The notes beneath the pieces were generated by a model that saw only the letters and a program-made list of their open reading frames with translations, did no database searches and was not told the DNA's origin. From a virus, in UHGV virus genome UHGV-0107442: a stretch of 34,578 bases of DNA. The stretch is one strand, 5' to 3'. Positions 691-27,548 of the stretch are shown here, in pieces. The position numbers were made by a program, and so were the translations under genes. How positions within the stretch are numbered: the stretch's first letter is position 1; every line of letters begins with the position of its first letter.

Positions 691-1743
691 TTACGGGGTA
701 ATGCCAACCGCTGCCGCCACTTTGTCGCCACTTGGCAGCGTTGCCAGAGGATTGAAACGGAGCGCCGTTTCCAGATGATCTGGTGCCAGATGTGCGTAAC
801 GCATAGTCATTTTTATATCGTGGTGTCCGAGAATTTTTTGTAAGGCGAGAATGTTTCCACCCGACATCATGAAGTGCGCCGCAAATGTATGGCGCAGAAC
901 GTGTGTGAGTTGACCGCGAGGGAGCACGATAGACGTTTTTTCCATCACGGATAAAAATTGAAAATAGCAGTCTGTAAAGAAATTGAACCCATCAAGCGCC
1001 ATGATCTCTTCGTAAAGCTCTTTACTGATAGGGATGCTTCTGTTTTTCTTCCCCTTCGTTCTGACAAAGGTAATTCGGTATTTGGTCACCTGTGAGCGGG
1101 TAAGATTTACGGCTTCACGCCAGCGTGCGCCTGTGCTTAAGCATATCTTAACTACCAGTGCCAGAATCGGGTCCTGACGTTTACAATCAGCCAGCAATTC
1201 AACAATCTGCTCATGGGTAAGCCATGCCATCTCTTTTTCTGCGATGGTGAATTTTCGCATGTTCTCCAGTGGGTTCGGATACGACCATTCGCCCAGGCGG
1301 GATAGTTCGCTAAAAACACTACTAAGATAGCTTTGCTCCAGGTTAATAGTGACCGGGCTTGCTCCTTTTTTCCATTTCTCGCTGAAGTAGATCTCACCCG
1401 TCAGGCGTTTATCTCGATAGTGGGCAAACATTTTAGATGTGAGATCGGTTGCAAGGGGATTGCCCAGAGCGTCAACCATCAACAGCAATTTGTCATAGAC
1501 ATGCTGCCCAGCGGTTAGAGCTTTACCATGTAGTTTGAACCATAGCTCAACTACGTCTTTCAGTGTTCGACGATCCACTGATTCACCCAGCCAGGGCTTT
1601 GCTTCGGTTTCTTCCATCGTGTGGCGCTCAAAAGCCAGAGCTTCGCCTTTGGTGGCGAATTGTTTACGCACACGACGCCCACTACGTCCGGCGGGGTAAC
1701 ATTCGCAAAGCCATTTCCCTGTGGTGAGTTTTCGTACTGCCAT
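691..1743 (-). CDS. int: Phage tyrosine integrase (P2/186 Int family)
   Basis: ORF 691..1899 (-) in the track; first ATG at 1743 is preceded by GGAGGG at 8-nt spacing on the minus strand. C-terminal catalytic region contains HVLRHTFA and MTMRYAHL (R-H-R-Y type). 350 aa versus about 337 aa for P2 Int. Confidence 0.9.
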   Translation of the reverse strand: MAVRKLTTGKWLCECYPAGRSGRRVRKQFATKGEALAFERHTMEETEAKPWLGESVDRRTLKDVVELWFKLHGKALTAGQHVYDKLLLMVDALGNPLATDLTSKMFAHYRDKRLTGEIYFSEKWKKGASPVTINLEQSYLSSVFSELSRLGEWSYPNPLENMRKFTIAEKEMAWLTHEQIVELLADCKRQDPILALVVKICLSTGARWREAVNLTRSQVTKYRITFVRTKGKKNRSIPISKELYEEIMALDGFNFFTDCYFQFLSVMEKTSIVLPRGQLTHVLRHTFAAHFMMSGGNILALQKILGHHDIKMTMRYAHLAPDHLETALRFNPLATLPSGDKVAAAVGITP

Positions 1744-1931
1744 AAAAAATGCCCTCCAGTAGAGAGCATTTTTACTGTATGTATAACCAGTGTCAATGTA
1801 TGAAATCCTACGACCATACATCTCACTGAAGCCATAATGAAGTTGGCTATTCTTTTTGCTATGTGAGCATGTAACTTTTGCGGTTAACCTGCGGCTCATT
1901 TTTATTTTAGACGCAGATATAAAAGCAAAAG

Positions 1932-4922: not shown

Positions 4923-5776
4923 GCACCATCCTGAAATGGGCGGGAAATAAAACCGCCATAATGTCCGAACTGAAAAAGCATCTTCCTGCTGGCCCGCGAC
5001 TGGTTGAACCTTTCGCGGGTTCCTGTGCAGTGATGATGGAGACGGATTACCCCAGCTATCTTGTTGCGGATATTAATCCTGATTTAATCAACCTCTATAA
5101 AAAGGTTGCTGCTGATTGTGAGGCGTTTATATCTCGTGCCAGAGCTTTATTTGAGGAAGCAAACAGGGAGGTGGCTTATTACAACATAAGGCAGGAGTTT
5201 AATTACTCCACTGAAATTACTGATTTCATGAAAGCGGTATATTTTCTGTATCTCAATCGTCATGGTTACCGTGGGTTATGTCGCTATAACAAGAGCGGGT
5301 ATTTCAACATTCCCTACGGTAATTATAAAAATCCGTATTTCCCTGAAAAAGAAATTCGCGCATTTGCAGAGAAAGCCCAGCGGGCAACGTTTATCTGCGC
5401 CAGCTTTGATGAAACGCTGGCGATGTTGAAGGCGGGGGATGTGGTGTATTGCGATCCGCCGTATGACGGTACGTTTTCCGGCTATCACACTGATGGTTTC
5501 ACTGAAGATGACCAGTATCACCTGGCATCCGTTCTTGAACATCGGTCATCAGAAGGACATCCGGTCATTGTTTCTAACAGTGACACATCCCTGATCCGTT
5601 CGCTGTATCGCAATTTTACTCACCACTACATCAAGGCAAAACGCAGCATCGGTGTGGCAGCTGGTGATAGTAAATCTGCAACAGAAATCATTGCTGTTTC
5701 CGGGGCGCGCTGCTGGGTGGGATTTGATCCTTCGCGTGGCGTAGATAGTTCTGCTGTGTACGAGGTGCGTGTATGA
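4919..5776 (+). CDS. Dam-type DNA adenine methyltransferase (GATC-class N6-MTase), orphan
   Basis: ORF 4859..5776 begins with TTG; ATG at 4919 follows GGAGG at 8-nt spacing. Has the DPPY catalytic motif (VYCDPPY) and an N-terminal AdoMet region (ILKWAGNK...EPFAGSCAV). No adjacent restriction endonuclease gene. Confidence 0.85.
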
Positions 5777-8166
5777 GTCATGACGATATGAGCAACTCTA
5801 GCGGCTTTAACGAGGCCGCTGCATCATTTTCATGGAACGGCCCGAAAAAGGCCATTAACCCTTATCTGGACCCGGCGGAATTTGCGCCGGAGTCTGCACT
5901 TTCAAACCTGATCACTCTGTATGCTGCCGATAACGAGCAGGAACAACTGCGCCGCGAGGCACTGAGTGAGCAGGTCTGGGAGCGTTATTTCTTTAATGAA
6001 TCCCGTGATCCTGTCCAGCGCGAAATGGAGCAGGATAAGCTCATTAGCCGGGCAAAGCTGGCGCATGAGCAGCAGCGTTTTAATCCAGACATGGTCATTC
6101 TGGCTGACGTCAACGCCCAGCCTTCCCATATCAGCAAGCCGCTGATGCAACGTATTGAATACTTCAGCAGTCTGGGCAGGCCAAAGGCTTATTCCCGCTA
6201 TTTGCGTGAGACGATTAAGCCATGTCTGGAAAGACTGGAGCATGTACGCGACAGTCAGCTATCCACTTCTTTTCGCTTTATGGCAAGCCATGAAGGGCTG
6301 GACGGCCTGCTGATCCTGCCTGAAATGAGTCAGGATCAGGTAAAACGCCTGTCCACCCTGGTAGCAGCGCATATGAGCATGTGTCTTGAGGTCGCTTGTG
6401 GTGATTTGTATGCCACCGATGACGTTAAGCCAGAAGAAATCCGCAAGACATGGGAAAAGGTGGCGGCGGAAACCCTGCGACTGGATGTCATACCGCCTGC
6501 GTTTGAGCAACTCCGCAGGAAAAGAAACCGCCGTAAACCCGTGCCCTATGAACTTATTCCGGGTTCGCTGGCGCGTATGTTGTGCGCCGACTGGTGGTAT
6601 CGGAAATTATGGAAGATGCGTAGCGAATGGCGGGAAGAGCAGTTGCGTGCTGTTTGCCTGGTCAGCAAAAAAGCATCTCCCTATGTCAGCTATGAAGCCG
6701 TGATGCATAAACGTGAGCAGCGCCGTAAGTCGCTGGAGTTTTTCCGTTCTCATGAACTGGTGAACGAAGACGGCGACACGCTGGATATGGAAGACGTGGT
6801 AAACGCCAGCAGCAGCAACCCTGCGCATCGCCGCAATGAGATGATGGCCTGTGTTAAAGGTCTGGAGCTTATCGCGGAAATGCGCGGTGACTGCGCCGTT
6901 TTCTACACCATCACCTGTCCGTCACGTTTCCATTCCACGCTAAATAACGGCAGGCCAAACCCGACCTGGACCAACGCGACAGTAAGACAAAGCAGCGATT
7001 ATCTGGTCGGCATGTTTGCTGCATTTCGTAAGGCTATGCACAAAGCCGGGTTGCGCTGGTATGGCGTGCGGGTGGCTGAGCCGCATCATGACGGCACAGT
7101 TCACTGGCACCTGTTGTGTTTCATGCGCAAAAAAGACCGCCGCGCCATTACTGCATTGTTGCGTAAGTTTGCCATCCGTGAAGACCGCGAGGAGCTGGGC
7201 AATAACACGGGGCCACGCTTTAAGTCTGAGCTGATAAACCCGCGCAAAGGAACGCCGACAAGCTACATTGCGAAATATATCAGTAAGAATATTGACGGGC
7301 GTGGTCTGGCTGGCGAGATCAGTAAGGAAACGGGTAAATCCCTGCGTGATAACGCTGAATACGTTAATGCCTGGGCGTCTCTGCATCGTGTTCAGCAATT
7401 CCGCTTCTTTGGCATTCCGGGGCGTCAGGCTTACCGTGAACTGCGATTGCTGGCTGGTCAGGCGGCAAGGCAACAGGGGGACAAAAAAGCAGGTGCGCCG
7501 GTACTGGATAACCCGCGCCTTGATGCAATCCTGGCTGCTGCTGATGCTGGTTGTTTTGCCACTTACATCATGAAGCAGGGCGGCGTACTGGTTCCCCGCA
7601 AATATCACCTCATCAGAACTGCTTATGAAATTAACGAAGAGCCGACCGCCTATGGCGATCACGGCATTCGTATTTATGGCATCTGGTCACCCATTGCAGA
7701 GGGCAAGATCTGCACTCATGCAGTGAAGTGGAAAATGGTTCGTAAAGCCGTTGACGTTCAGGAGGCGGTAGCCGACCAGGGCGCTTGCGCCCCTTGGACT
7801 CGTGGCAATAACTGTCCCCCTGTTGAAAATATGAACAAATCAGGGGGGGATTTACCCGATATTAAAACCATGGATGAGAAGGAGCTGCAGGAATATCTCC
7901 ACAACATGGGCCAGAAGGAACGGCGGGAGCTGACAGCCAGGTTGAGACTGGTAAAACCGAAGCGAAAAAAAGCATACATACAGAGTATTTCGGAGCAGCA
8001 GCGCCTGCAGCTTGAGGCAGAACTGACTGCCAGAGGGTTTGAGGGTAGTGTATCTGAGATTGATTTGCTTCTGCGTGGCGGCAGCATTCCATCCGGTGCC
8101 GGTTTACGTATTTTTTACCGTAAACAGAGGCTGCAGGAAGATGACAAATGGCGTCGATGGTACTAA
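5773..8166 (+). CDS. A: Rolling-circle replication initiation protein (P2 gpA family)
   Basis: 797 aa; size and position match P2 A (761 aa). Contains the region [13 protein letters not shown] (HUH-like) and downstream YIAKYISK with candidate catalytic tyrosines. Start overlaps the Dam stop. Confidence 0.9.
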
Positions 8167-8982: not shown

Positions 8983-10164
8983 ATGAAACTGACTGAGCTA
9001 ACTATAAACGGTATCGGGGGGATAAAGTCCCTGTACGTAAAATTTAGGCCTGACATGAATATTATATGTGGGCCTAACGGAGTTGGAAAATCCACACTCT
9101 TGCTTGCTGCCTCCTTTCCTTTTCTTCATGGATACACTAATAGAATAAAACGCAATGTCACTTCTGAAACAGGAAGTGTTAGTCTAATAATAGAAGATAA
9201 TTCTGTTAACTTTAATTCAGTATTAGATGTTAACGTTCATTTGCCTACAGAAACAATTCACAACTTTAATAATAACGGATTTGATAAGAGGAAACTAATA
9301 AAATTTGAAATATTACGTAACTTTGATTATAAACATCTTGAGGCGTTGAATGCAGATAAATCACTATCCGATGATGCTGTTTCGCAACAGATTAATTTAG
9401 GTGTCAATTTACATGATATCAAGGATTGGTTTGCTAAGAGGGATTTGTTTGAAAAAGTAGATAATGGTTACGGTCCTAATACGATAAAAAATATACATCT
9501 TGCAAGGGAGTGTATATCAATTTTAAACCCTCAGTTTTCTTACAATCGCGTCGATCCTAAATCTTACGATATTTTTGTAAATACCCCGACCGGGGTAATA
9601 TGGTATGAATATCTGTCCTCGGGATTCAAATCATGTATGAGTCTCCTTCTCGGTATTATTAAAGAGATCGAGCTTCGTTATCCGGAGAAAGATATTTACG
9701 CCCAAGAATTTGATGGAGTGATTCTTATCGATGAAATTGAGCTTCATTTGCATCCTGAGTGGCAGGCAAGAATCACTGAAGCCCTTACGACAACATTTCC
9801 ATCAGCACAATTTATTGTCACAACTCACAGCCCACATGTAGTACAGAATGCAAAACCACATCAGATCATTGCGTTAGTACCAGATAATGATGGCACAGTG
9901 AGAGTAAAAGAACTTCCTGAAAATGGCTTGGGTTATTCTGCCTGGACAGTTGAAGAGGTTTTGTTAGATGTAATGGGGATGGAAAGCACTCTCAGTAGAA
10001 AACTACAAGAACTACTTGATAATTTCGAACGTTTTGTTGATGAAGAAAATTTCGACAAGGCGAAAGAAATTTATGATTATTTGGATATGGCATTGCATCA
10101 AAACAGTATTCTTCGTAAATCTCTTAAAATAAGCCTGATGTCAATTCGAGAGAGAGAAGAGTAA
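8983..10164 (+). CDS. ABC/SMC-like P-loop ATPase, Septu PtuA-like
   Basis: ORF 8962..10164 begins with GTG; ATG at 8983 follows AGGAA. Walker A GPNGVGKST, Walker B VILIDEIELHLHP, then TTHSP. 393 aa; the stop abuts the start of the HNH gene. About 33% GC versus about 52% in the phage backbone. Confidence 0.8.
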   Translation: MKLTELTINGIGGIKSLYVKFRPDMNIICGPNGVGKSTLLLAASFPFLHGYTNRIKRNVTSETGSVSLIIEDNSVNFNSVLDVNVHLPTETIHNFNNNGFDKRKLIKFEILRNFDYKHLEALNADKSLSDDAVSQQINLGVNLHDIKDWFAKRDLFEKVDNGYGPNTIKNIHLARECISILNPQFSYNRVDPKSYDIFVNTPTGVIWYEYLSSGFKSCMSLLLGIIKEIELRYPEKDIYAQEFDGVILIDEIELHLHPEWQARITEALTTTFPSAQFIVTTHSPHVVQNAKPHQIIALVPDNDGTVRVKELPENGLGYSAWTVEEVLLDVMGMESTLSRKLQELLDNFERFVDEENFDKAKEIYDYLDMALHQNSILRKSLKISLMSIREREE

Positions 10165-10165
10165 A

Positions 10166-10912
10166 ATGATTAAGCTTGAACGGAACTTTATTCCTGATTT
10201 TTTTACTCGTGTTGATCTTCTATCTTTAACTCAGGAGTTTAAAGATAATGGAACATCTGTTTGGCATCATCCGGAAGTAAAATCGGCATGTCTAAAATTA
10301 AGTAATGGCAAATGTGCATTTTGTGAGGTCAAGCTTGAAGAGGCTAGCACCTATAATGAAATTGAGCATTTTAAGGATAAAAAAAATTTCCCTGATGATG
10401 TTATTAGATGGGAAAATCTCCTTCCTTCATGCCGTCACTGTAATGGTTCAAAACAACGCCATAATGTTGTACTCAATCCTATAATAAATCCATGCAACGA
10501 TTTACCGTCAGAACACCTTTATATGATAGGGTATCGTATTAAAGGTAAAACTGATTTAGGTAAAACAACAGTGGATGTTTTAAACTTTAATCACAGGGAG
10601 CACAAGTTTATACCGCGTTGTAAAGCAGGGGAACTTATAGATAGCAGTATTGATGACGCAATAGAAAAACTTAATTGGTTTAATGAGAATCCAAGTACTA
10701 GACGTAAAAACATTCTTATGAATCTAGTCGAGGCAATATTAGGTGAGTGTCAGAAAACATCTCCCTTTTCTGCAGTATCAGCAACAATGCTTCATCGTTC
10801 AGTCGAATATTCTTATCTGAAAGAAACCATGCAGATGCAAGGATTATGGTCAGATTATATGCAGGAACTTCATGATGAATCTTTGAGCCTGACGTTACCG
10901 TCAATTCGCTAG
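10166..10912 (+). CDS. HNH endonuclease, Septu PtuB-like
   Basis: 248 aa with CAFCE...EIEHFKDKKNFPDDVIRWENLLPSCRHCNGSK (CxxC...H...N...CxxC HNH core). ATG 10166 is 1 nt after the ATPase stop. Confidence 0.8.
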   Translation: MIKLERNFIPDFFTRVDLLSLTQEFKDNGTSVWHHPEVKSACLKLSNGKCAFCEVKLEEASTYNEIEHFKDKKNFPDDVIRWENLLPSCRHCNGSKQRHNVVLNPIINPCNDLPSEHLYMIGYRIKGKTDLGKTTVDVLNFNHREHKFIPRCKAGELIDSSIDDAIEKLNWFNENPSTRRKNILMNLVEAILGECQKTSPFSAVSATMLHRSVEYSYLKETMQMQGLWSDYMQELHDESLSLTLPSIR

Positions 10913-10938
10913 TTAATACAGTTTTGCCCATAAAAGCT

Positions 10939-10974
10939 AAACGTTCAGATATTCTTGGCTGAACGTTTGATTTT
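10939..10974 (+). terminator. Rho-independent terminator after the HNH gene
   Basis: Stem AAACGTTCAG (10939..10948), 10-nt loop, CTGAACGTTT (10959..10968), followed by GATTTTAT. Confidence 0.6.
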
Positions 10975-11257
10975 ATGAAGACGATAAGCAGATTGGGCCC
11001 GAGTGAGTATCTCGGGAAAATAAACCATTTACATACTATGTTTAACGTTCAAAGCACACCTCAAGCTTTCTTAGTTCTTCTGCTTCGATATATAAACGGT
11101 CATTTGGTTACGAACATTCACTTCTCCCCTAAGTGCATGGCTATGCTGCATGAGATCGCATGACCGTTTGAGGAGCGTTGTAACGCAGGCGTGCCAGTTG
11201 TGACGGACTTTTTCGTATGTTATGCACCTGCATGAAAACCATTGCACAAAGCGGGCA

Positions 11258-11284
11258 GGCGTGGCGGGGATACGAGCGCGCGCT
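11258..11284. other. cos-like sequence (P2/186-type cohesive-end site)
   Basis: GGCGTGGCGGGGA at 11258..11270 matches the first 13 nt of the 186 cohesive end (GGCGTGGCGGGGAAAGCAT as remembered) and 12 of 13 of P2. The following GCGCGCT also resembles sequence next to P2 cos. The last 6 nt of the 19-mer differ, so this is not certain. Confidence 0.45.
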
Positions 11285-11378
11285 AACTCATAAATCCTAG
11301 ATTATTAGTGGATTTATCTCATTGAAATGTGCACTATTCCCAGCATTGAGTTGTACCAGATGTCTTTATGGAGGGACT

Positions 11379-13145
11379 GTGGCTTTTGTAACTGATATTC
11401 GGCTTGAAGATAATGCTATTGCTGCACCTGCGACAGCACAGGTTATGGCTCAGAGGCTAGGATCTGTATTACGTAAGAGATATGAAGAATTCATCCATAA
11501 AAGAGAGTGTGCACCAGGCCAAGCAGACTATGATGTAAAAATGGCTAGCAGGGCTTTAGCTGCATTCACTATGTATCAGTTAGGATGTGTGGATGATAAG
11601 TATGCAGGGGAGTCTGTATGTGATAGTAGTGAAGATGGTGGTATAGATGGAATAGCAATCAACCATAACGAAAAAATCGTTGTTGTTGTTCAATCAAAAT
11701 TTCACCAATCGGGAAACGGCACTTGGACAAGAGCCGATTTTATGTGTTTTAAGGATGCTTGTGAGAAGCTACAAAGTGAAAGATACGAATTATTTGATTC
11801 CATATTGCAAAATAAAAGCGGGGAAATAAGTGCGGCTTTAAGTAGTTTTGAATACAAGTTCATCTTTGCGATGGCGCATACAGGTAAAAAAGGTGCTGCA
11901 GAGGAAATATTAAATGATATGCGGGAATGGCAATATCAATTAAACGCTGCAGCTTTTACACCTGAGGATGAGCCTAAAGAGAACTGGGGATTTCAGGTTC
12001 ATTTAATATCCTCTGAAGATATGATGCATTGGTTACAGAATGGCTCTCGAAATCAAATTGATCTTAACAGGGTTGAAATTGAGCGTTTTGGATTTTTGAA
12101 TGAACCATATCAAGCTTTTTACGGGGCTATTAGTGGTGATCAAGTTGCAGAATGGTGGGAAGAGCATGGTGCTCGATTATTTACAAAAAACATAAGGAAT
12201 ATGCTTGGTAAAACAGAAGTGAATGAGGAAATAAAAAAGACAGCTATAGATAATCCTGATATGTTTTGGTTTTATAATAATGGGATTACTGTACTGGTTA
12301 AGGAGGTTGTTCCTCATAGACGAAACGCAGCTCCTAATATAGAGAGAGGGATTTTTGATTTTCGTGATGTAAGTGTCATTAATGGTGCACAAACAGTCAG
12401 TAGTATTGGCGCATGTAAAGATGCGCTTGGTGAAAACATATATAGACTCAAAGTGCCAGCCAGATTCATTGTTATAGATGATGATACTGATAATTTAACT
12501 GCAAATGCGATTACAAAAGCTAACAATTTCCAAAATAGAGTATTGGGAAGAGATTTTGCGTCGCAGCAGGCAGATCAACATAGATTGGCAAGGGAGTTAG
12601 TGCTTGAAGGATATCAATATCAGTTACTAAGAACAGATGAAGATCATTCACAGACAAATACGAAAGTCATTGACTTGGATGAGGCGCTCAATGCACTCGC
12701 ATGTTTAAGTAAAAATAATACGGTTGTATCGACACTAAAATCAAATCGCGGTAGGTTTTTTGAAAATTTTGAAGGCTCTCTATATAAAACTATTTTCAAT
12801 CCAAGATTAAGTGGTTTAAAACTTATCAATACTGTTCTACATTTTAGAGTTATAGATAAGTTGATCGGTAAAACATTACTATCAGTAGATAAAACTACCC
12901 ATAGTCGCAAGCATTTAATTATTACGCATGGTAATAGATACTATGCGTCTGTGCTATTGAGCAACGTTTCTGGGATACATAATAGCTCAGAAATTCTTGT
13001 TCCAGATGAAAAAAATCTTTCAGAAGAATTAAGTGCATTAATTCAACGTGCTGAAGAGTACATTGAAGATAATTACCCGAATGCCTATCCGGCAAGATTT
13101 TTTGCAAATCCAACGAAAATACAAGAGTTATACGATAATGTTTAA
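11379..13145 (+). CDS. AIPR-family (abortive-infection phage-resistance) protein with an N-terminal PD-(D/E)xK-like nuclease motif
   Basis: ORF 11322..13145 begins with TTG. Start uncertain: GTG 11379 (GGAGGG 3 nt upstream) or ATG 11445. N-terminal DSSEDGGIDGIAI...VVVVQSKF resembles Mrr/restriction-endonuclease-like D...QxK. Central WFYNNGITVLV...VINGAQT matches the AIPR hallmark as remembered. AT-rich. Confidence 0.7.
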   Translation: MAFVTDIRLEDNAIAAPATAQVMAQRLGSVLRKRYEEFIHKRECAPGQADYDVKMASRALAAFTMYQLGCVDDKYAGESVCDSSEDGGIDGIAINHNEKIVVVVQSKFHQSGNGTWTRADFMCFKDACEKLQSERYELFDSILQNKSGEISAALSSFEYKFIFAMAHTGKKGAAEEILNDMREWQYQLNAAAFTPEDEPKENWGFQVHLISSEDMMHWLQNGSRNQIDLNRVEIERFGFLNEPYQAFYGAISGDQVAEWWEEHGARLFTKNIRNMLGKTEVNEEIKKTAIDNPDMFWFYNNGITVLVKEVVPHRRNAAPNIERGIFDFRDVSVINGAQTVSSIGACKDALGENIYRLKVPARFIVIDDDTDNLTANAITKANNFQNRVLGRDFASQQADQHRLARELVLEGYQYQLLRTDEDHSQTNTKVIDLDEALNALACLSKNNTVVSTLKSNRGRFFENFEGSLYKTIFNPRLSGLKLINTVLHFRVIDKLIGKTLLSVDKTTHSRKHLIITHGNRYYASVLLSNVSGIHNSSEILVPDEKNLSEELSALIQRAEEYIEDNYPNAYPARFFANPTKIQELYDNV

Positions 13146-13149
13146 ACTA

Positions 13150-13173
13150 AAGGGAGGTTGCCTCCCTTTTTTT
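13150..13173. terminator. Bidirectional terminator between the convergent AIPR and portal genes
   Basis: AAGGGAGG-TTG-CCTCCCTT hairpin (13150..13168) running into a T-run through 13173, with an A-rich stretch on the other side. It fills almost all of the 30-bp gap between the two stops. Confidence 0.65.
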
Positions 13174-13175
13174 AA

Positions 13176-14201
13176 TTAGAAATGGTATTCTTGGAATTCA
13201 ATAACACCTTCTTTTATGAAATTGTTTATTTCTTGTAATCTTTTTTGCAATGGCAATAATTCATTACGTACAAATACTTTACTCGCCTTCTCTACATCTC
13301 CAAAGCCCCCAACATTATTAGGCATTATCCCCATCATTTGCGGTGGCACACGATGCGCCGCCATCATGTCATCCCGGCTCACGTTCTTGATGTTTAGAAA
13401 CTCATCCTTCGCCGCCACTTCTGACAACGGGATAATCTGAAGTCCGTCCTTTTTCCCGTTAGGCGAGTACATAAACAGGTTGCGGAAGTTACCTGGTCCT
13501 TTGGCGCTTTTCATCGCATTGCGGAGGTTGTTCACATCCTCCTGGTTTTGCGCGGCATCGGTCATGTACATGATGAAGCCTGCATGACTGCCGTTAATGT
13601 AATACTTTCGGCGGAACAGCGTGGCGGACTCGTTGAGCAGGGCTGACGGAATGGCAGAAAGGTAACCTGGCAGGCCGTAGATCTCCTGGTTGATGTCCGG
13701 TTCCATCAGATGAAAGATGCTTCCTTTCGTGAACTGATATGGCTGCGTGGTCATACCGTATTGCACAAACCAGTAGGTATCCAGGTCTAACCCGCGTCGG
13801 GTGTATTTTGCCAGGGCAGGTTCAAGGGCGATAACTTCACCGAAGCGGTTAGTGCGTTTCTCCAGGTAGGCGTTACCAAAAACCAGATAGTCCTGCACAA
13901 AACGTGAAAAAGCCTGCTGGCTGAGCAGCGGGTGAGGGATATAGGTGCTGGACAGAATGTTGCACTTTACTGCAATCGGGGAGCTGTGATGTACGGCAGC
14001 GCGGAAGGTTCGCGCCAGCCCGTCGAAACTCACTGGTGGCTCATACCAGCGGTCCATCTGTACGCATTCCACATAGTCCAGTAATTCGCGGCGGTCCAGA
14101 ACAGGAACGGGATCACCGAAGCTGAATGCTTCGGCTGAAGTTTGGTTTTTATGCTGGATCTGGTTCGTCGCCGCAGCGCGGTTTTTCTTACTCTTTCCCA
14201 T
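13176..14201 (-). CDS. Q: Portal protein (P2 gpQ family)
   Basis: 341 aa from ATG 14201 (-); the track's 14204 start is TTG. Size and position match P2 Q; the start overlaps the P stop (ATGA). Confidence 0.9.
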   Translation of the reverse strand: MGKSKKNRAAATNQIQHKNQTSAEAFSFGDPVPVLDRRELLDYVECVQMDRWYEPPVSFDGLARTFRAAVHHSSPIAVKCNILSSTYIPHPLLSQQAFSRFVQDYLVFGNAYLEKRTNRFGEVIALEPALAKYTRRGLDLDTYWFVQYGMTTQPYQFTKGSIFHLMEPDINQEIYGLPGYLSAIPSALLNESATLFRRKYYINGSHAGFIMYMTDAAQNQEDVNNLRNAMKSAKGPGNFRNLFMYSPNGKKDGLQIIPLSEVAAKDEFLNIKNVSRDDMMAAHRVPPQMMGIMPNNVGGFGDVEKASKVFVRNELLPLQKRLQEINNFIKEGVIEFQEYHF

Positions 14202-15967
14202 CAAAAAATCTCCACAATATTGCTGGTATTGGCGGACTCGCCCTGCAGCGGTTCGTTAAACAGTGCGTGCATTGTTGCCCAGGCCAGATCGGCATGGCTG
14301 GCTTCTTCGCTGCGGCTGGCTTCATAGGTTGGGCGGTTGCCGCTGGCGGTGGTGGCGCGACGGATTGCCATAAATGACTGCGCTATGTCGGTGTGTCCGG
14401 CGTCAAACTCCAGACGACGGTGACTGATAATGTCGTAGGCCTTGAGTACCAGGGCGTTTTTAACGTTGGGGTTGTAGACAAACTCCCGGACGGCTGGAAA
14501 AAACGCTTTCACGTTCTCGTAAACCCCGTGGCCGACACCTGTCGAGTCGATGCCGATGTAGGTCACGTTGTACTGTTCGGTCAGTTTTTTGATGGCGTCA
14601 GCCTGGGCGCGAAAGTCCATTCCGCGCCACTGGTGACGCTCAAGAATGCGGAACTTGCCGCCCGGTACGGTTGGCGGAGCCACCACCACGCATCCGGCGC
14701 TGTCGCCATTCTGCGTACCTTTCGCCGGGTCATAACCGATCCATACTTCGCGCCAGCCAAACGGGCGCAGGGCCAGTGCATGAAAGTCAGTCCAGACTTC
14801 CCAGCTGTCTACCATGCACGCCTGCAGCTCGCTGAGCGGGAACACGGACGCGAGATCGTCCACAAACTCGCACATCAGCAGGTTCTGGTATTCGTCCGGG
14901 CTGTACTCCATGCGCAACTGGTCAAGGTCGAACAGGTTACAGCCGCCGCGCACCGCATCTTCCACGGTGACTATCTGGCGGTATTGCCCGTCTGCGCACA
15001 GCAGGCCGGGGGCCAGATTGCTGTGGGACAGGTCGATGTCCACCTTATCGGCTTTGTTGCGCCCACGGTTGAACAGCGCACCGGACCAGAACGGATAAGC
15101 ACTGTGGGTCAGGCTGGATGGTGTGGAAAAATAGGTCTGCCGCCATTTCTTGTGAATAGCCATACCGGAAGCCACTTTGCGTAGCTCCTGAAATTTCGGT
15201 ATCCAGAAATATTCATCCAGATACAGGTTGCCGTGATAACTCTGAGCCGTGCGGGCATTGGTGCCGAGGAAGTAAAGCGTGGCCCCGTTAGGAAGCACCA
15301 TCGGATCGCCTTTCAGTTCCACATCCACTTCTTTGGCGAAGTCGATGATGTACTGCTTAAAGACGTGGGCCTGTGCCTTACTGGCGGAAAGAAAAATCTG
15401 GTTACGTCCGGTAAGCAGGGCGTCAATCAGGGCTTCACGGGCAAAGTAAAAGGTCGCGCCGATCTGGCGTGACTTCAGCAGGTTGCGGATGCGGTTGGTT
15501 TTTCCGACTTCCCACCAGTGGCGCTGGTAGTTGAACATGGAGGAATGGAAGATTTCTTCCAGCTTCTCAATCTGTTCATCGGTGAAGACATTCTTTTCCG
15601 GCTGACGGCGCGGGCCTTTGTTGCGGTTGGCGACGTTAGGGTTTAAGTCAGCTTCGTTGCCGCCATTGTTAAACTTGCCGATCCGCGCGTGGCGCTCCGA
15701 CTGGCGCGCCAGCAGGTCAATCTCTTTGAAATCTTTCCCTTCTTTGTGCTCCTTCATGATGAGCTGGCAGTAGCGTGCGGCGGTGGTGAGCTGCATCTGA
15801 TCCAGCGGCCCATAGTCACCCCACTTGTCGCGTTTTTTCCAGCTGTGAACGGTTGCAACTTTCTCGCCCAGCATTTCAGCAATGCGGGCTACGCGGTATC
15901 CCTGAAAGTACAGCAGCATGGCCTGCCGACGGGGATCGAGATCTGCGGGTGTCAGTGTGGTGTTCAT
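14201..15967 (-). CDS. P: Terminase large (ATPase) subunit (P2 gpP family)
   Basis: 588 aa; the P-then-Q leftward operon is characteristic of P2-like phages. ATG at 15967 (-). Confidence 0.9.
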   Translation of the reverse strand: MNTTLTPADLDPRRQAMLLYFQGYRVARIAEMLGEKVATVHSWKKRDKWGDYGPLDQMQLTTAARYCQLIMKEHKEGKDFKEIDLLARQSERHARIGKFNNGGNEADLNPNVANRNKGPRRQPEKNVFTDEQIEKLEEIFHSSMFNYQRHWWEVGKTNRIRNLLKSRQIGATFYFAREALIDALLTGRNQIFLSASKAQAHVFKQYIIDFAKEVDVELKGDPMVLPNGATLYFLGTNARTAQSYHGNLYLDEYFWIPKFQELRKVASGMAIHKKWRQTYFSTPSSLTHSAYPFWSGALFNRGRNKADKVDIDLSHSNLAPGLLCADGQYRQIVTVEDAVRGGCNLFDLDQLRMEYSPDEYQNLLMCEFVDDLASVFPLSELQACMVDSWEVWTDFHALALRPFGWREVWIGYDPAKGTQNGDSAGCVVVAPPTVPGGKFRILERHQWRGMDFRAQADAIKKLTEQYNVTYIGIDSTGVGHGVYENVKAFFPAVREFVYNPNVKNALVLKAYDIISHRRLEFDAGHTDIAQSFMAIRRATTASGNRPTYEASRSEEASHADLAWATMHALFNEPLQGESANTSNIVEIF

Positions 15968-18021: not shown

Positions 18022-18672
18022 ATGAGCCTGAGTCCCGCACGGCAGCATCGCCTGCGCGTTCAGGCTGAACAGGCCGCCCGCGAGGGCGGCAGTGTTCGCC
18101 ACGCATCGGGCTATGACCTGATGCTGCTGCAACTGGCGGAAGACCGCCGCCGTCTCAAGGGCGTTCAGTCCACGGTCAAAAAAGCGGAAATCAAGGTGGA
18201 GCTGCTGCCGAAGTACGCCGCCTGGGCAGAGGGTGTCCTGGCTGCCGGAGGCGCTCAACAGGATGACGTGCTGATGTACGTGATGCTGTGGCGCATTGAT
18301 GCCGGAGATTATGCCGGGGCGCTGGAGATCGGGCGTCATGCCCTGCGTCATGGCTGGGTGATGCCGCTGGGTAACCGCAACGTGCAGACCGTGCTGGCAG
18401 AGGAAATGGCAGACGCCGCGCAGAGCGCAATGCTTGCCGCCACCGGCTTTGATACCGATCTGTTGTTGCAGACGCTGGAGCTGACAGACGGTCTGGATAT
18501 GCCGGACCAGTCACGGGCGCGTCTGCATAAAGCGATTGGCGCTGTCCTGAGTGAAAGCAATCCGGCTTCCGCCCTTAATCATCTCAACCATGCGTTACAG
18601 CTTGATCCCCGCTGTGGCGTGAAAAAAGACAAACAGCAGCTGGAGCGCAGACTGCGCAATGACAGCCGCTGA
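18022..18672 (+). CDS. M: Terminase small / endonuclease subunit (P2 gpM family)
   Basis: 216 aa; position after N, 3 nt after its stop. Confidence 0.85.
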   Translation: MSLSPARQHRLRVQAEQAAREGGSVRHASGYDLMLLQLAEDRRRLKGVQSTVKKAEIKVELLPKYAAWAEGVLAAGGAQQDDVLMYVMLWRIDAGDYAGALEIGRHALRHGWVMPLGNRNVQTVLAEEMADAAQSAMLAATGFDTDLLLQTLELTDGLDMPDQSRARLHKAIGAVLSESNPASALNHLNHALQLDPRCGVKKDKQQLERRLRNDSR

Positions 18673-25985: not shown

Positions 25986-26220
25986 CCCCCGGCGCGGTGC
26001 TGGTATCTGCTTCCATCACCGCGTCGATATTACCAACATCATATTCAGTCATTTCCGGTTCCGGTGGTGCTATAAACTCTCCGTCAGAATAGAACCAACC
26101 GACGCCTGCATCTATATGATCAATATTTATAATTTCGCAGTTAGAGAATAAATCACCCTCTCCATCCCAGATAATAATATTTTTCACCACGCCATGTTCA
26201 ATCAGAGCAAAATTACTCAT
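25954..26220 (-). CDS. Small ORF of the alternative cassette; putative tail-fibre assembly/chaperone protein (88 aa)
   Basis: ATG at 26220 (-) overlaps the stop of the alternative fibre C-terminus (ATGA). Convergent with the ORF at 25788..25985, as expected for an invertible segment. Confidence 0.5.
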   Translation of the reverse strand: MSNFALIEHGVVKNIIIWDGEGDLFSNCEIINIDHIDAGVGWFYSDGEFIAPPEPEMTEYDVGNIDAVMEADTSTAPGVIWPVPPDMV

Positions 26221-26954
26221 CAGGCATACTCCTCAACAATAACTATTCCCGGGGCACCGTCACCTCCCGATTGAGCCTCACTTCCAGCAGGTGCGCAGGC
26301 TCCGCCTCCGCCAGAACCAAAGCCCTCAGCTTTACCACCACCACGTCCGCTGAATGATGAAGAACTTGCACCACCTATACCGCCTGAACCTAATGGTGTA
26401 TCCCCCCCGTTACCCCCTGCTACAGCTTTAACAGAGATAACCATTGCTCCTGGTGTTTTTGCACTACAGCGAAATGCTCTTAGTACAGTACCGGACGATG
26501 TCGGACTGGCACCCCGTGAAATACCCTGAATATATGATGTGTTTGCAGATGCTCCCCCCGCGCCACCGCCTGTACCACCAGGTGCAGTTATCATGGAACC
26601 GAAATAAGTTGTGCCACCTTCACTACCTGAATTTCTTCCGGCTCCCCCCCCTTTACCTGCAGCACCGATAATAACGTTGACTTCGAAATCATTATCAACC
26701 TCGAAAAATGCTTCAATAAATGCGCCGCTCAATCCAGCTCCGGCTGTTGCCTGCTGATTTTCTGTTGTTTCAGGAACCCCACCGCCGCCGCCACCGCCAC
26801 CAGAGGCAATGACCCTTATCTTTTTTGTCCCTGGTGTTGGGATATATTTTCCAGAGCTTTTAAAAATATTCGTGTTTAACAAACGACCAGAGAATCTGGC
26901 TTCTCCCAAACCAACGTTTAAGAAAATGCAGAGGTAACAGCTAACTGGCATCAT
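26220..26954 (-). CDS. Alternative, glycine-rich tail-fibre C-terminal cassette (silent in this orientation)
   Basis: The minus-strand ORF encodes VGLGEARF at the crossover site (26894..26914), in frame with the same GLGEAR encoded in H. Inversion would fuse about 230 aa of Gly-rich sequence (runs such as GGGGGGGG, GGTGGGAGG) to the H constant part. The first 14 codons before the crossover are probably not part of any real protein. Confidence 0.65.
   Translation of the reverse strand: MMPVSCYLCIFLNVGLGEARFSGRLLNTNIFKSSGKYIPTPGTKKIRVIASGGGGGGGGVPETTENQQATAGAGLSGAFIEAFFEVDNDFEVNVIIGAAGKGGGAGRNSGSEGGTTYFGSMITAPGGTGGGAGGASANTSYIQGISRGASPTSSGTVLRAFRCSAKTPGAMVISVKAVAGGNGGDTPLGSGGIGGASSSSFSGRGGGKAEGFGSGGGGACAPAGSEAQSGGDGAPGIVIVEEYA
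26901..26926. repeat. Right inversion crossover site (gix/hix/cix-like)
   Basis: TTCTCCCAAACC-AA-CGTTTAAGAAAA: two 12-bp half-sites around a 2-bp core, resembling remembered hix/gix sites (for example TTCTTGAAAACC-AA-GGTTTTTGATAA). Confidence 0.6.
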
Positions 26955-26981
26955 CTCCGGTTTTTATTCAGGGGGATGATC

Positions 26982-27548
26982 ATGCTTATTGGCTATGTAC
27001 GCGTGTCAACAAATGACCAGAACACCGATTTGCAACGTAATGCACTGAATTGCGCGGGATGTGAGCAGATTTTTGAGGACAAAATCAGTGGCACTAAGTC
27101 CGACAGACCGGGGCTGAAAAAACTACTCAGGACACTATCGGCAGGAGACACGCTGGTTGTCTGGAAGCTGGACAGGTTGGGGCGCAGTATGCGGCATCTT
27201 GTTACGCTGATAGAAGAGTTGCGCCAGCGTGGTGTGAATTTCGGAAGCCTGACTGACAGTATTGATACCAGTACCCCAATGGGCCGTTTCTTTTTTCATG
27301 TCATGGGTGCCCTGGCTGAAATGGAACGCGAACTGATAGTTGAACGTACCAGGGCAGGGCTGGCTGCAGCTCGTGCCAAAGGCAGAGTAGGTGGACGCCG
27401 TCCTAAGTTGACCACCGAACAGTGGGCACAGATTGGGCGTTTACTCGAGGCCGGAGAATCAAGACAGCGTATTGCACTGATTTTTGATGTAGGCGTTTCT
27501 ACCATTTATAGAAAATTTCCGGCAAATAAGATCAATGAATCCCCCTGA
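26982..27548 (+). CDS. Serine recombinase, DNA invertase (Hin/Gin/Cin/Pin family)
   Basis: MLIGYVRVSTNDQNTDLQ... with the catalytic-serine motif (VRVSTNDQ) and a C-terminal HTH. ATG 26982 follows AGGGGG; an alternative ATG at 26976 is in frame. Confidence 0.85.
   Translation: MLIGYVRVSTNDQNTDLQRNALNCAGCEQIFEDKISGTKSDRPGLKKLLRTLSAGDTLVVWKLDRLGRSMRHLVTLIEELRQRGVNFGSLTDSIDTSTPMGRFFFHVMGALAEMERELIVERTRAGLAAARAKGRVGGRRPKLTTEQWAQIGRLLEAGESRQRIALIFDVGVSTIYRKFPANKINESP

Follow-up and report, generated by a model that had tools for sequence, protein, structure and literature searches.

A probable cos packaging site between two defence cassettes in a Fels-2-type P2-like prophage of Escherichia coli

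Positions 11134-11283 of the window, our term for the whole 34,578-nt stretch of UHGV virus genome UHGV-0107442 that was analysed, very probably constitute the functional cos packaging site of an E. coli prophage, a P2-like member of the Peduoviridae belonging to the Fels-2 type. This assignment draws on sequence identity, the pattern of conservation, gene order, the relationship of the terminase, and the independent assortment of the cargo genes on either side. By homology with P2 and 186, a terminase composed of gpM and gpP would assemble on a region of TGCAT repeats left of the cut and, following the annotated P2 and 186 ends, would introduce staggered nicks at 11257/11258 on the top strand (before 11258) and at 11276/11277 on the bottom strand (after 11276). 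The resulting virion DNA would carry 19-nt 5' overhangs, GGCGTGGCGGGGATACGAG, which would anneal after injection and be ligated, re-forming cos. A cut at 11258-11276 would make an AIPR gene the first gene at the left end of the linear virion genome and a Septu operon the last one at its right end. The elements of the site are listed below.

11134-11283, no strand assigned: whole cos island, in which 124 bp precede the nick and 7 bp follow the 19-mer (conservation profile)
11188-11209, plus strand: degraded remnant of a mid-island GC hairpin (fold energy and variant table)
11229-11283, no strand assigned: 55-bp core, comprising TGCATGAAAACC, 9 bp, AAGCGGGCA, the 19-mer, and CGCGCGC (matches the P2/P4 55-bp core)
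11258-11276, plus strand: putative 19-nt cohesive end GGCGTGGCGGGGATACGAG (Fels-2-type variant of the P2/186 cos)
11277-11283, plus strand: CGCGCGC block abutting the cohesive end, the final conserved bases before the right-hand cargo

Read in the window, positions 11258-11270 (plus strand) are GGCGTGGCGGGGA, followed by TACGAG and, at 11277-11284, by CGCGCGCT. The first element agrees with the start of the cohesive end at 13/13 positions in 186 and at 12/13 in P2, and the GCGCGC behind it is invariant and equally spaced in the window, Fels-2, SopEphi, MLG42, 186, P2, and P4. The cos-like match at 11258-11270 with its trailing GCGCGC, first noticed in the initial annotation, is therefore borne out in both identity and spacing. 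The 19-mer and the CGCGCGC block together form a 26-mer, GGCGTGGCGGGGATACGAGCGCGCGC, with one occurrence in the window. When up to three mismatches were allowed, the 19-mer matched a single site, compared with 0.02 expected from shuffled sequence; the exact 13-mer was likewise unique, and the 19-mer of 186, again at up to three mismatches, detected no second site anywhere in the window. Because the window extends from the integrase gene (691-1899, minus strand) and a CI-type repressor through genes A, Q, P, O, N, and M and the tail genes to gene D, these searches covered the entire P2-like gene set, and the prophage contained no better cos candidate, although a superior 19-nt match elsewhere in it had been specifically sought.

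The similarity extends beyond the cohesive end. A core of about 55 bp around the cut, common to P2 and P4, was described by Ziermann and Calendar in 1990, as quoted in PMC5694545, and the P2/P4 alignment leads us to equate 11229-11283 with that published core. The window core is identical to that of Fels-2 at 52/55 positions, to those of 186 and P4 at 43/55, and to that of P2 at 40/55, and its invariant columns include TGCAT, AAAACC, AAG.GGGC, GGCG.GGCGGGGA, and GCGCGC. Alignment with the P2 and 186 cos regions, which had been proposed as a check on the site, thus revealed the same architecture with 40-43 of the 55 core positions identical. The site accordingly has a 19-nt end of the GGCG(A/T)GGCGGGGA... 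type characteristic of the family, set in a core of about 55 bp that is common to its relatives and to the satellite P4.

Conservation among related prophages delimited a compact island. In an alignment of 119 unique sequences anchored on the 19-mer, it was limited to 11134-11283 and dropped to background on both sides, on the right immediately after 11283. TGCAT/GCATG repeats lie at 11134, 11147, 11158, 11222, and 11229; the 124-bp left arm holds four TGCAT/ATGCA words where 0.26 would be expected from the window's own frequency, an approximately 15-fold enrichment. The layout consists of three distal TGCAT(G) repeats, a variable middle, a proximal ATGCA..TGCAT-AAAACC, 9 bp, AAGCGGGC, the 19-mer, and GCGCGC, and in the alignment it is common to the window, P2, 186, and P4. 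The cos sites of these three phages are experimentally defined, and the P2 and 186 ends are 19-nt 5' cohesive ends. The best-conserved parts of the island, namely the 19-mer with GCGCGC and the TGCAT repeats, are exactly those common to the P2, 186, and P4 sites, and the repeat arm is presumed to be the region that the terminase recognizes.

The genes on which the remainder of the argument rests, with the hairpin between two of them, are the following.

5773-8166, plus strand: replication gene A, left boundary of the hotspot (Pfam Phage_GPA, E = 3e-127)
8983-10164, plus strand: PtuA, Septu ATPase, first left-cargo gene (PADLOC E = 1e-151; Pfam AAA_21/AAA_15; RefSeq start codon)
10166-10912, plus strand: PtuB, HNH nuclease partner in Septu, second left-cargo gene (PADLOC E = 2e-95)
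11379-13145, plus strand: AIPR/AbiU-like abortive-infection gene, right cargo (Pfam AIPR E = 7e-35; PADLOC AbiU E = 7e-25)
13150-13173, no strand assigned: hairpin AAGGGAGG-TTG-CCTCCCTT with a trailing T-run, in the gap that separates AIPR from the convergent portal gene (sequence reading)
13176-14201, minus strand: portal gene, P2 gpQ homologue, first backbone gene right of cos (Pfam Phage_portal; RefSeq coordinates)
14201-15967, minus strand: large terminase subunit, gpP homologue, presumptive cos-cleaving enzyme (Pfam Terminase_6N, Terminase_6C, Terminase_5)
18022-18672, plus strand: small terminase subunit, gpM homologue, expected to recognize cos (Pfam Phage_term_smal)

The packaging proteins of the prophage belong to the same lineage as its cos sequence. 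Identity to the Fels-2 protein, with that to the P2 and 186 proteins in parentheses, is 97.6% (63%) for the large subunit, 94.5% (approximately 49%) for the small subunit, and 89% (61-64%) for the portal protein. All three genes retain their full length, so the element that carries the site also carries intact cognate gpM and gpP. This relationship bears on the end of the 19-mer, where TACGAG replaces the AAGCAT of 186, with 4/6 bases unlike. The initial annotation had pointed to the divergence of these six bases, and the divergence itself is real; what changes is its interpretation, since the comparison indicates a lineage-specific variant accompanying the Fels-2-type terminase rather than decay. 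The six bases would then differ from those of P2 and 186 because this lineage pairs a distinct cos variant with a terminase of its own.

The most serious alternative is that the island is cos by descent but that this copy is weakened or dead; changes in the arm that the terminase presumably recognizes, together with the loss of a mid-island hairpin, would then block efficient packaging and leave the prophage an immobile carrier of defence genes. Against the consensus of the 118 other unique islands, the window differs at 23/150 positions, and seven of the 23 deviations fall in columns conserved at 97% or more, all of them at 11164-11242 in the left arm. The closest IMG/VR island among the matches listed is 87% identical, and none of the phage records exceeds approximately 85% identity to the window island. 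A GC hairpin in the middle of the island, with the family consensus GCCCGCCAG-NNN-CTGGCGGGC followed by TTTT and terminator-like in form, is also lost: its predicted fold amounts to -2.1 kcal/mol in the window (z = +1.2), compared with -11.0 in Fels-2 and -7.8 in SopEphi. Moreover, E. coli EC50, which shares the island, has a truncated large-terminase pseudogene (L169 10916-11097). On the other hand, all five TGCAT/GCATG repeats are intact in the window copy, 36/36 bases at 11248-11283 agree with the family consensus, and no truncation affects the portal or terminase genes, which share 89-98% identity with their Fels-2 counterparts. P2 packages normally without an equivalent of the hairpin, and imperfect stems occur in other family members. 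Finally, an identical island is found in E. coli of differing hosts and continents with two different right-hand cargoes; segments 99.9-100% identical that contain the exact island came from isolates of chicken (USA), bird, cow, and duck, with genomes of 4.7-5.7 Mb. This distribution may hint at recent horizontal spread. On balance, we consider a dead or weakened copy unlikely, and a functional cos remains the preferred reading.

The hairpin was also weighed as an essential element of cos and rejected in that role, because it is absent in P2 and its stem varies across the family without compensating changes. An AT-rich hairpin lies just 3' of the PtuB stop codon, at 10939-10976 (AAACGTTCAG, 10 nt, CTGAACGTTT, then GATTTTAT), and is probably the Septu cassette's own terminator; the possession of such a terminator could explain why the loss of the cos-island hairpin is tolerated. 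A scan of 10800-11500 predicted no terminators, nor did it predict a sigma-70-like promoter in the stretch from cos to the start of AIPR. The loop limit of the scan was 8, and the 10-nt loop is presumably why the hairpin at 10939-10976 went unreported. Between cos and the AIPR start codon we also noted an 8-bp inverted repeat (ATAAATCC, 12 nt, GGATTTAT; 11290-11317), which is present in other AIPR-carrying prophages (L170, L171). The hairpin at 13150-13173, beyond the AIPR gene, has the appearance of a two-way terminator.

Alternatively, the island might be kept for a role other than packaging, for example to terminate or regulate transcription of the flanking operons or to encode a small RNA or a short protein, with its likeness to cos incidental. 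The consensus island does contain a terminator-like hairpin with a T-run, some records annotate short "hypothetical protein" genes across the island, and ORFs of 23-62 aa overlap it in the window. However, these short ORFs lie on both strands and none spans the island, an Rfam search of the region matched no family, and the hairpin is the least conserved component and is missing from the window copy. The strongest conservation coincides instead with the elements common to the defined cos sites of P2, 186, and P4, and the genome record of the related phage SEN8 was opened at the 19-mer. A non-packaging role is therefore highly improbable. That a GC-rich 13-mer matches the P2/186 cohesive end by chance, a reading for which only the 4 of the last 6 bases differing from 186 speak, is refuted, with 0.02 sites expected at up to three mismatches, a correct map position and architecture, and hundreds of related phages carrying the sequence, and its probability is negligible.

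The probable cos site lies in the expected order on the map, with gene A (5773-8166), cos (11258-11276), and Q (13176-14201, minus strand) in succession and the conserved arm on the gene-A side, an order unchanged in 110 related loci. A small DinI-like gene lies between gene A and PtuA. PtuA and PtuB match their PADLOC profiles over 8-397 of 400 aa and 1-245 of 248 aa, respectively, and are adjacent on the same strand, 1 bp apart, in the arrangement of a type I Septu system; RefSeq lists PtuB as "HNH endonuclease family protein." The ATPase-HNH operon of the initial annotation is therefore a predicted Septu pair, and it does lie between gene A and cos, where P2 has old and tin. The AIPR gene was also correctly placed between cos and the portal stop codon, which is at 13176; RefSeq likewise starts it at a GTG at 11379, and 121 bp separate it from the inferred left terminus.

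Cargo on both sides of cos, which the initial annotation had singled out, was likewise confirmed (Septu on the left, AIPR on the right), except that this arrangement is not unusual. The distance from cos to Q exceeded 500 bp in 97/110 loci of this cos type, with a median of 1681 bp and a maximum of 3538 bp, and the other 13/110 had the empty spacing of approximately 165-195 bp found in P2 and 186. Among the 66 loci measurable on both sides, both slots were filled in 32, the right only in 27, the left only in 4, and neither in 3, which makes two-sided cargo the commonest state in the Fels-2-type cos lineage. Genes between cos and portal also occur in Fels-2, SopEphi, SEN8, and Cartapus. Both the cos site and the cargo on its two sides are thus already known features of a common, annotated phage lineage.

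Rousset et al. (2022, PMC9122126) describe a defence hotspot next to the cos of P2-like phages that extends from gene A to gene Q; Odegrip 2006 is also cited for this region, and it is named "moron position 1" in PMC3573123. The interval from cosL to Q is presented in PMC5694545, citing Dodd and Egan 1996 and Nakayama 1999, as a known site for the pick-up of foreign genes. Hotspots of this kind have been reported to house Septu as well as AIPR-domain systems. The passages of these papers that deal with the hotspot treat gene A to gene Q as a single one, and a division by cos into two independently assorting slots is not quantified in them. Our locus has the properties of such a hotspot, with unrelated gene content between the conserved flanking backbone genes of similar prophages and, judged by profile matches, cargo that includes recognized anti-phage systems (PtuA, PtuB, AbiU/AIPR).

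Comparison with the closest relatives revealed that the two sides change independently. E. coli EC50 matches the window at 2998/3000 positions to the left, including 124/124 in the arm, and becomes unrelated (32/124) from 27 bp past the nick, where its right-hand cargo is unlike that of the window. E. coli 98206 and E423 display the converse pattern: rightward from the nick they agree at 1880/1880 and 1877/1880 positions, respectively, and in the left arm at 92/124 and 97/124, and their left cargoes, a ComF-family gene in the former and DarT with a macro-domain protein in the latter, differ from that of the window. The same trend was apparent across 137 usable loci. Among pairs with the same far-left flank, the arm was common to 82/85 and the right flank was unrelated in 82/85, and among pairs with the same right flank, the arm was less than 90% identical in 13/24. 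This independent assortment of left and right cargo means that cos splits the hotspot into two slots.

Every breakpoint examined between the window prophage and its relatives falls at the invariant core. It is conceivable, although we regard it as doubtful, that the invariant cos core of 26-36 bp is itself the place of cargo exchange, in which case the cohesive ends of two co-resident phage genomes would anneal and be ligated. That cohesive ends seed exchange is a speculation offered by Rousset et al. (2022, PMC9122126). Breakpoints at the core would be explained equally well by ordinary homologous recombination initiated within the longest run of identity.

Two of the closest relatives are decayed prophages. 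In addition to EC50 with its large-terminase pseudogene, E423 (L170 6492-7160) has a truncated portal gene fused to tail-gene fragments and, next to cos, the remains of an IS5 element. Mobility has therefore been lost in some of the prophages that carry these defence cassettes.

The nearest known systems are those of the Fels-2/SEN8/SopEphi group (Felsduovirus and related Peduoviridae such as Cartapus), which have the same 26-mer, island layout, and map position as the window, and the terminase of Fels-2 is 94-98% identical to that of the window. They also carry cargo on both sides of cos (STM2726 and STM2723.1 in Fels-2, orf12-13 and orf14-15 in SopEphi, SEN8_49 and SEN8_1-2 in SEN8). Unlike them, the window has an island whose left arm is approximately 82-85% identical to theirs, has lost the mid-island hairpin, and carries Septu and AIPR as its cargo. 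With P2 and 186 it has in common the GCGCGC spacing, the TGCAT repeats and the AAAACC...AAGCGGGC element left of the nick, and a portal gene as the first backbone gene on the right. It differs from them in 4 of the last 6 bases of the 19-mer, in a 55-bp core identical at 40-43/55 positions, and in gpM (49%) and gpP (63%); the roughly 170 bp from cos to portal in P2 and 186 are without a gene, whereas the window carries the AIPR gene there. The satellite P4, with its cos and psu-int hotspot, resembles the window in having a TGCAT-repeat arm on the left, a 19-mer with CGCGCGC, and cargo immediately on the right (PMC9122126). Unlike the window, P4 has a P2-type 19-mer and is without structural genes. 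As a gene A-gene Q hotspot, with anti-phage systems next to cos, the window locus differs in nothing essential from its counterparts.

A looser analogy exists with the cos of lambda (cosN with cosB), in which a staggered cut and a one-sided, repeat-containing terminase-binding region likewise serve unit-length packaging. There is no sequence relationship between the two types; lambda has 12-nt rather than 19-nt overhangs, and R-sites and IHF take the place of the TGCAT repeats. The packaging substrate of lambda is concatemeric DNA, and that of P2 is reportedly circular monomers.

The Fels-2-type variant is widespread. An identical 26-mer occupies the corresponding map position in Fels-2, SopEphi, Yersinia phage vB_YpM_MLG42, and Escherichia phage vB_EcoM-813R9; the 19-mer is present in at least 120 IMG/VR contigs, and the 26-mer occurs in genomes of 38 species, for the most part Enterobacterales. 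A 62-bp core was found in 1242/5426 complete E. coli genomes (approximately 23%), E. coli B and BL21(DE3) among them, with a median of one copy per genome. The genome announcement of Salmonella phage SEN8, which forms plaques, identifies the identical 19-mer as cos (PMC5427200). The SEN8 record (KT630647.2) begins at the 19-mer (1-19, "putative cos site"), and its last base corresponds to window position 11257. In Escherichia phage Cartapus, this core carries the annotation "putative cos site, homologous to the cos of P2 phage." Both of these "putative" calls were apparently made by homology, and the literature searched for experimentally mapped virion ends of this variant (run-off, PhageTerm) yielded "putative" annotations only.

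A search for P4-like satellites carrying the variant, with P4 Psu, Delta, Sid, Alpha, and Int as queries, found no clear enterobacterial case among 124 IMG/VR loci and 38 genome loci. The 26-mer and the TGCAT-repeat layout were also observed in betaproteobacteria, on several contigs per genome, in Chitinimonas sp. BJB300 (L131-L134, L151) and Chitinimonas taiwanensis (L137, L154, L162). One BJB300 contig (L134) is a P2-like prophage with cos, approximately 2.6 kb of cargo, and portal, terminase, and capsid genes. One C. taiwanensis contig (L162) has ORFs resembling primase and AlpA on the left of cos; on the right come a 604-aa ATPase, a 381-aa ORF, and then a P4-type integrase (51-62% identity), a gene content that resembles a P4-type satellite. 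The Chitinimonas elements could therefore represent a helper-satellite pair with a common cos outside Enterobacterales. Another BJB300 contig (L131) contains, approximately 200-7050 bp right of cos, a VgrG-like gene of 980 aa that, together with further large ORFs, resembles a type VI secretion effector cluster in sequence, a slot that recalls the Vgr-like gene described between cosL and Q of Ralstonia phage RSY1 (PMC5694545).

Elsewhere in the window, a serine recombinase gene with Resolvase and HTH_7 domains (26976-27548, plus strand) adjoins an ORF on the minus strand (26220-26954) with a glycine-rich, tail-fibre-type domain, and the pair directly follows the tail-fibre genes. These two genes give 26220-27548 the look of an invertible host-range segment of the Gin/Cin type, located at what is the second variable position in P2-like phages; neither gene matched a PADLOC profile. 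At the left edge, outside the integrase, a TetR-family regulator gene (20-586) is probably host flank rather than phage DNA. The window contains no tRNA or tmRNA gene.

With the site at 11258-11276 very probably acting as cos, the ends of the packaged prophage genome can be placed, and the two defence cassettes come to lie at its extreme left (AIPR) and extreme right (Septu). The site also provides a simple rule for annotation: in P2-like prophages of the Fels-2 type, carried by roughly one in four complete E. coli genomes, the sequence GGCGTGGCGGGGATACGAGCGCGCGC identifies cos, and everything between that sequence and the portal gene is cargo. If the joining of cohesive ends between co-resident phages were in fact the route by which cargo is exchanged, terminase cutting itself would drive the shuffling of defence genes.
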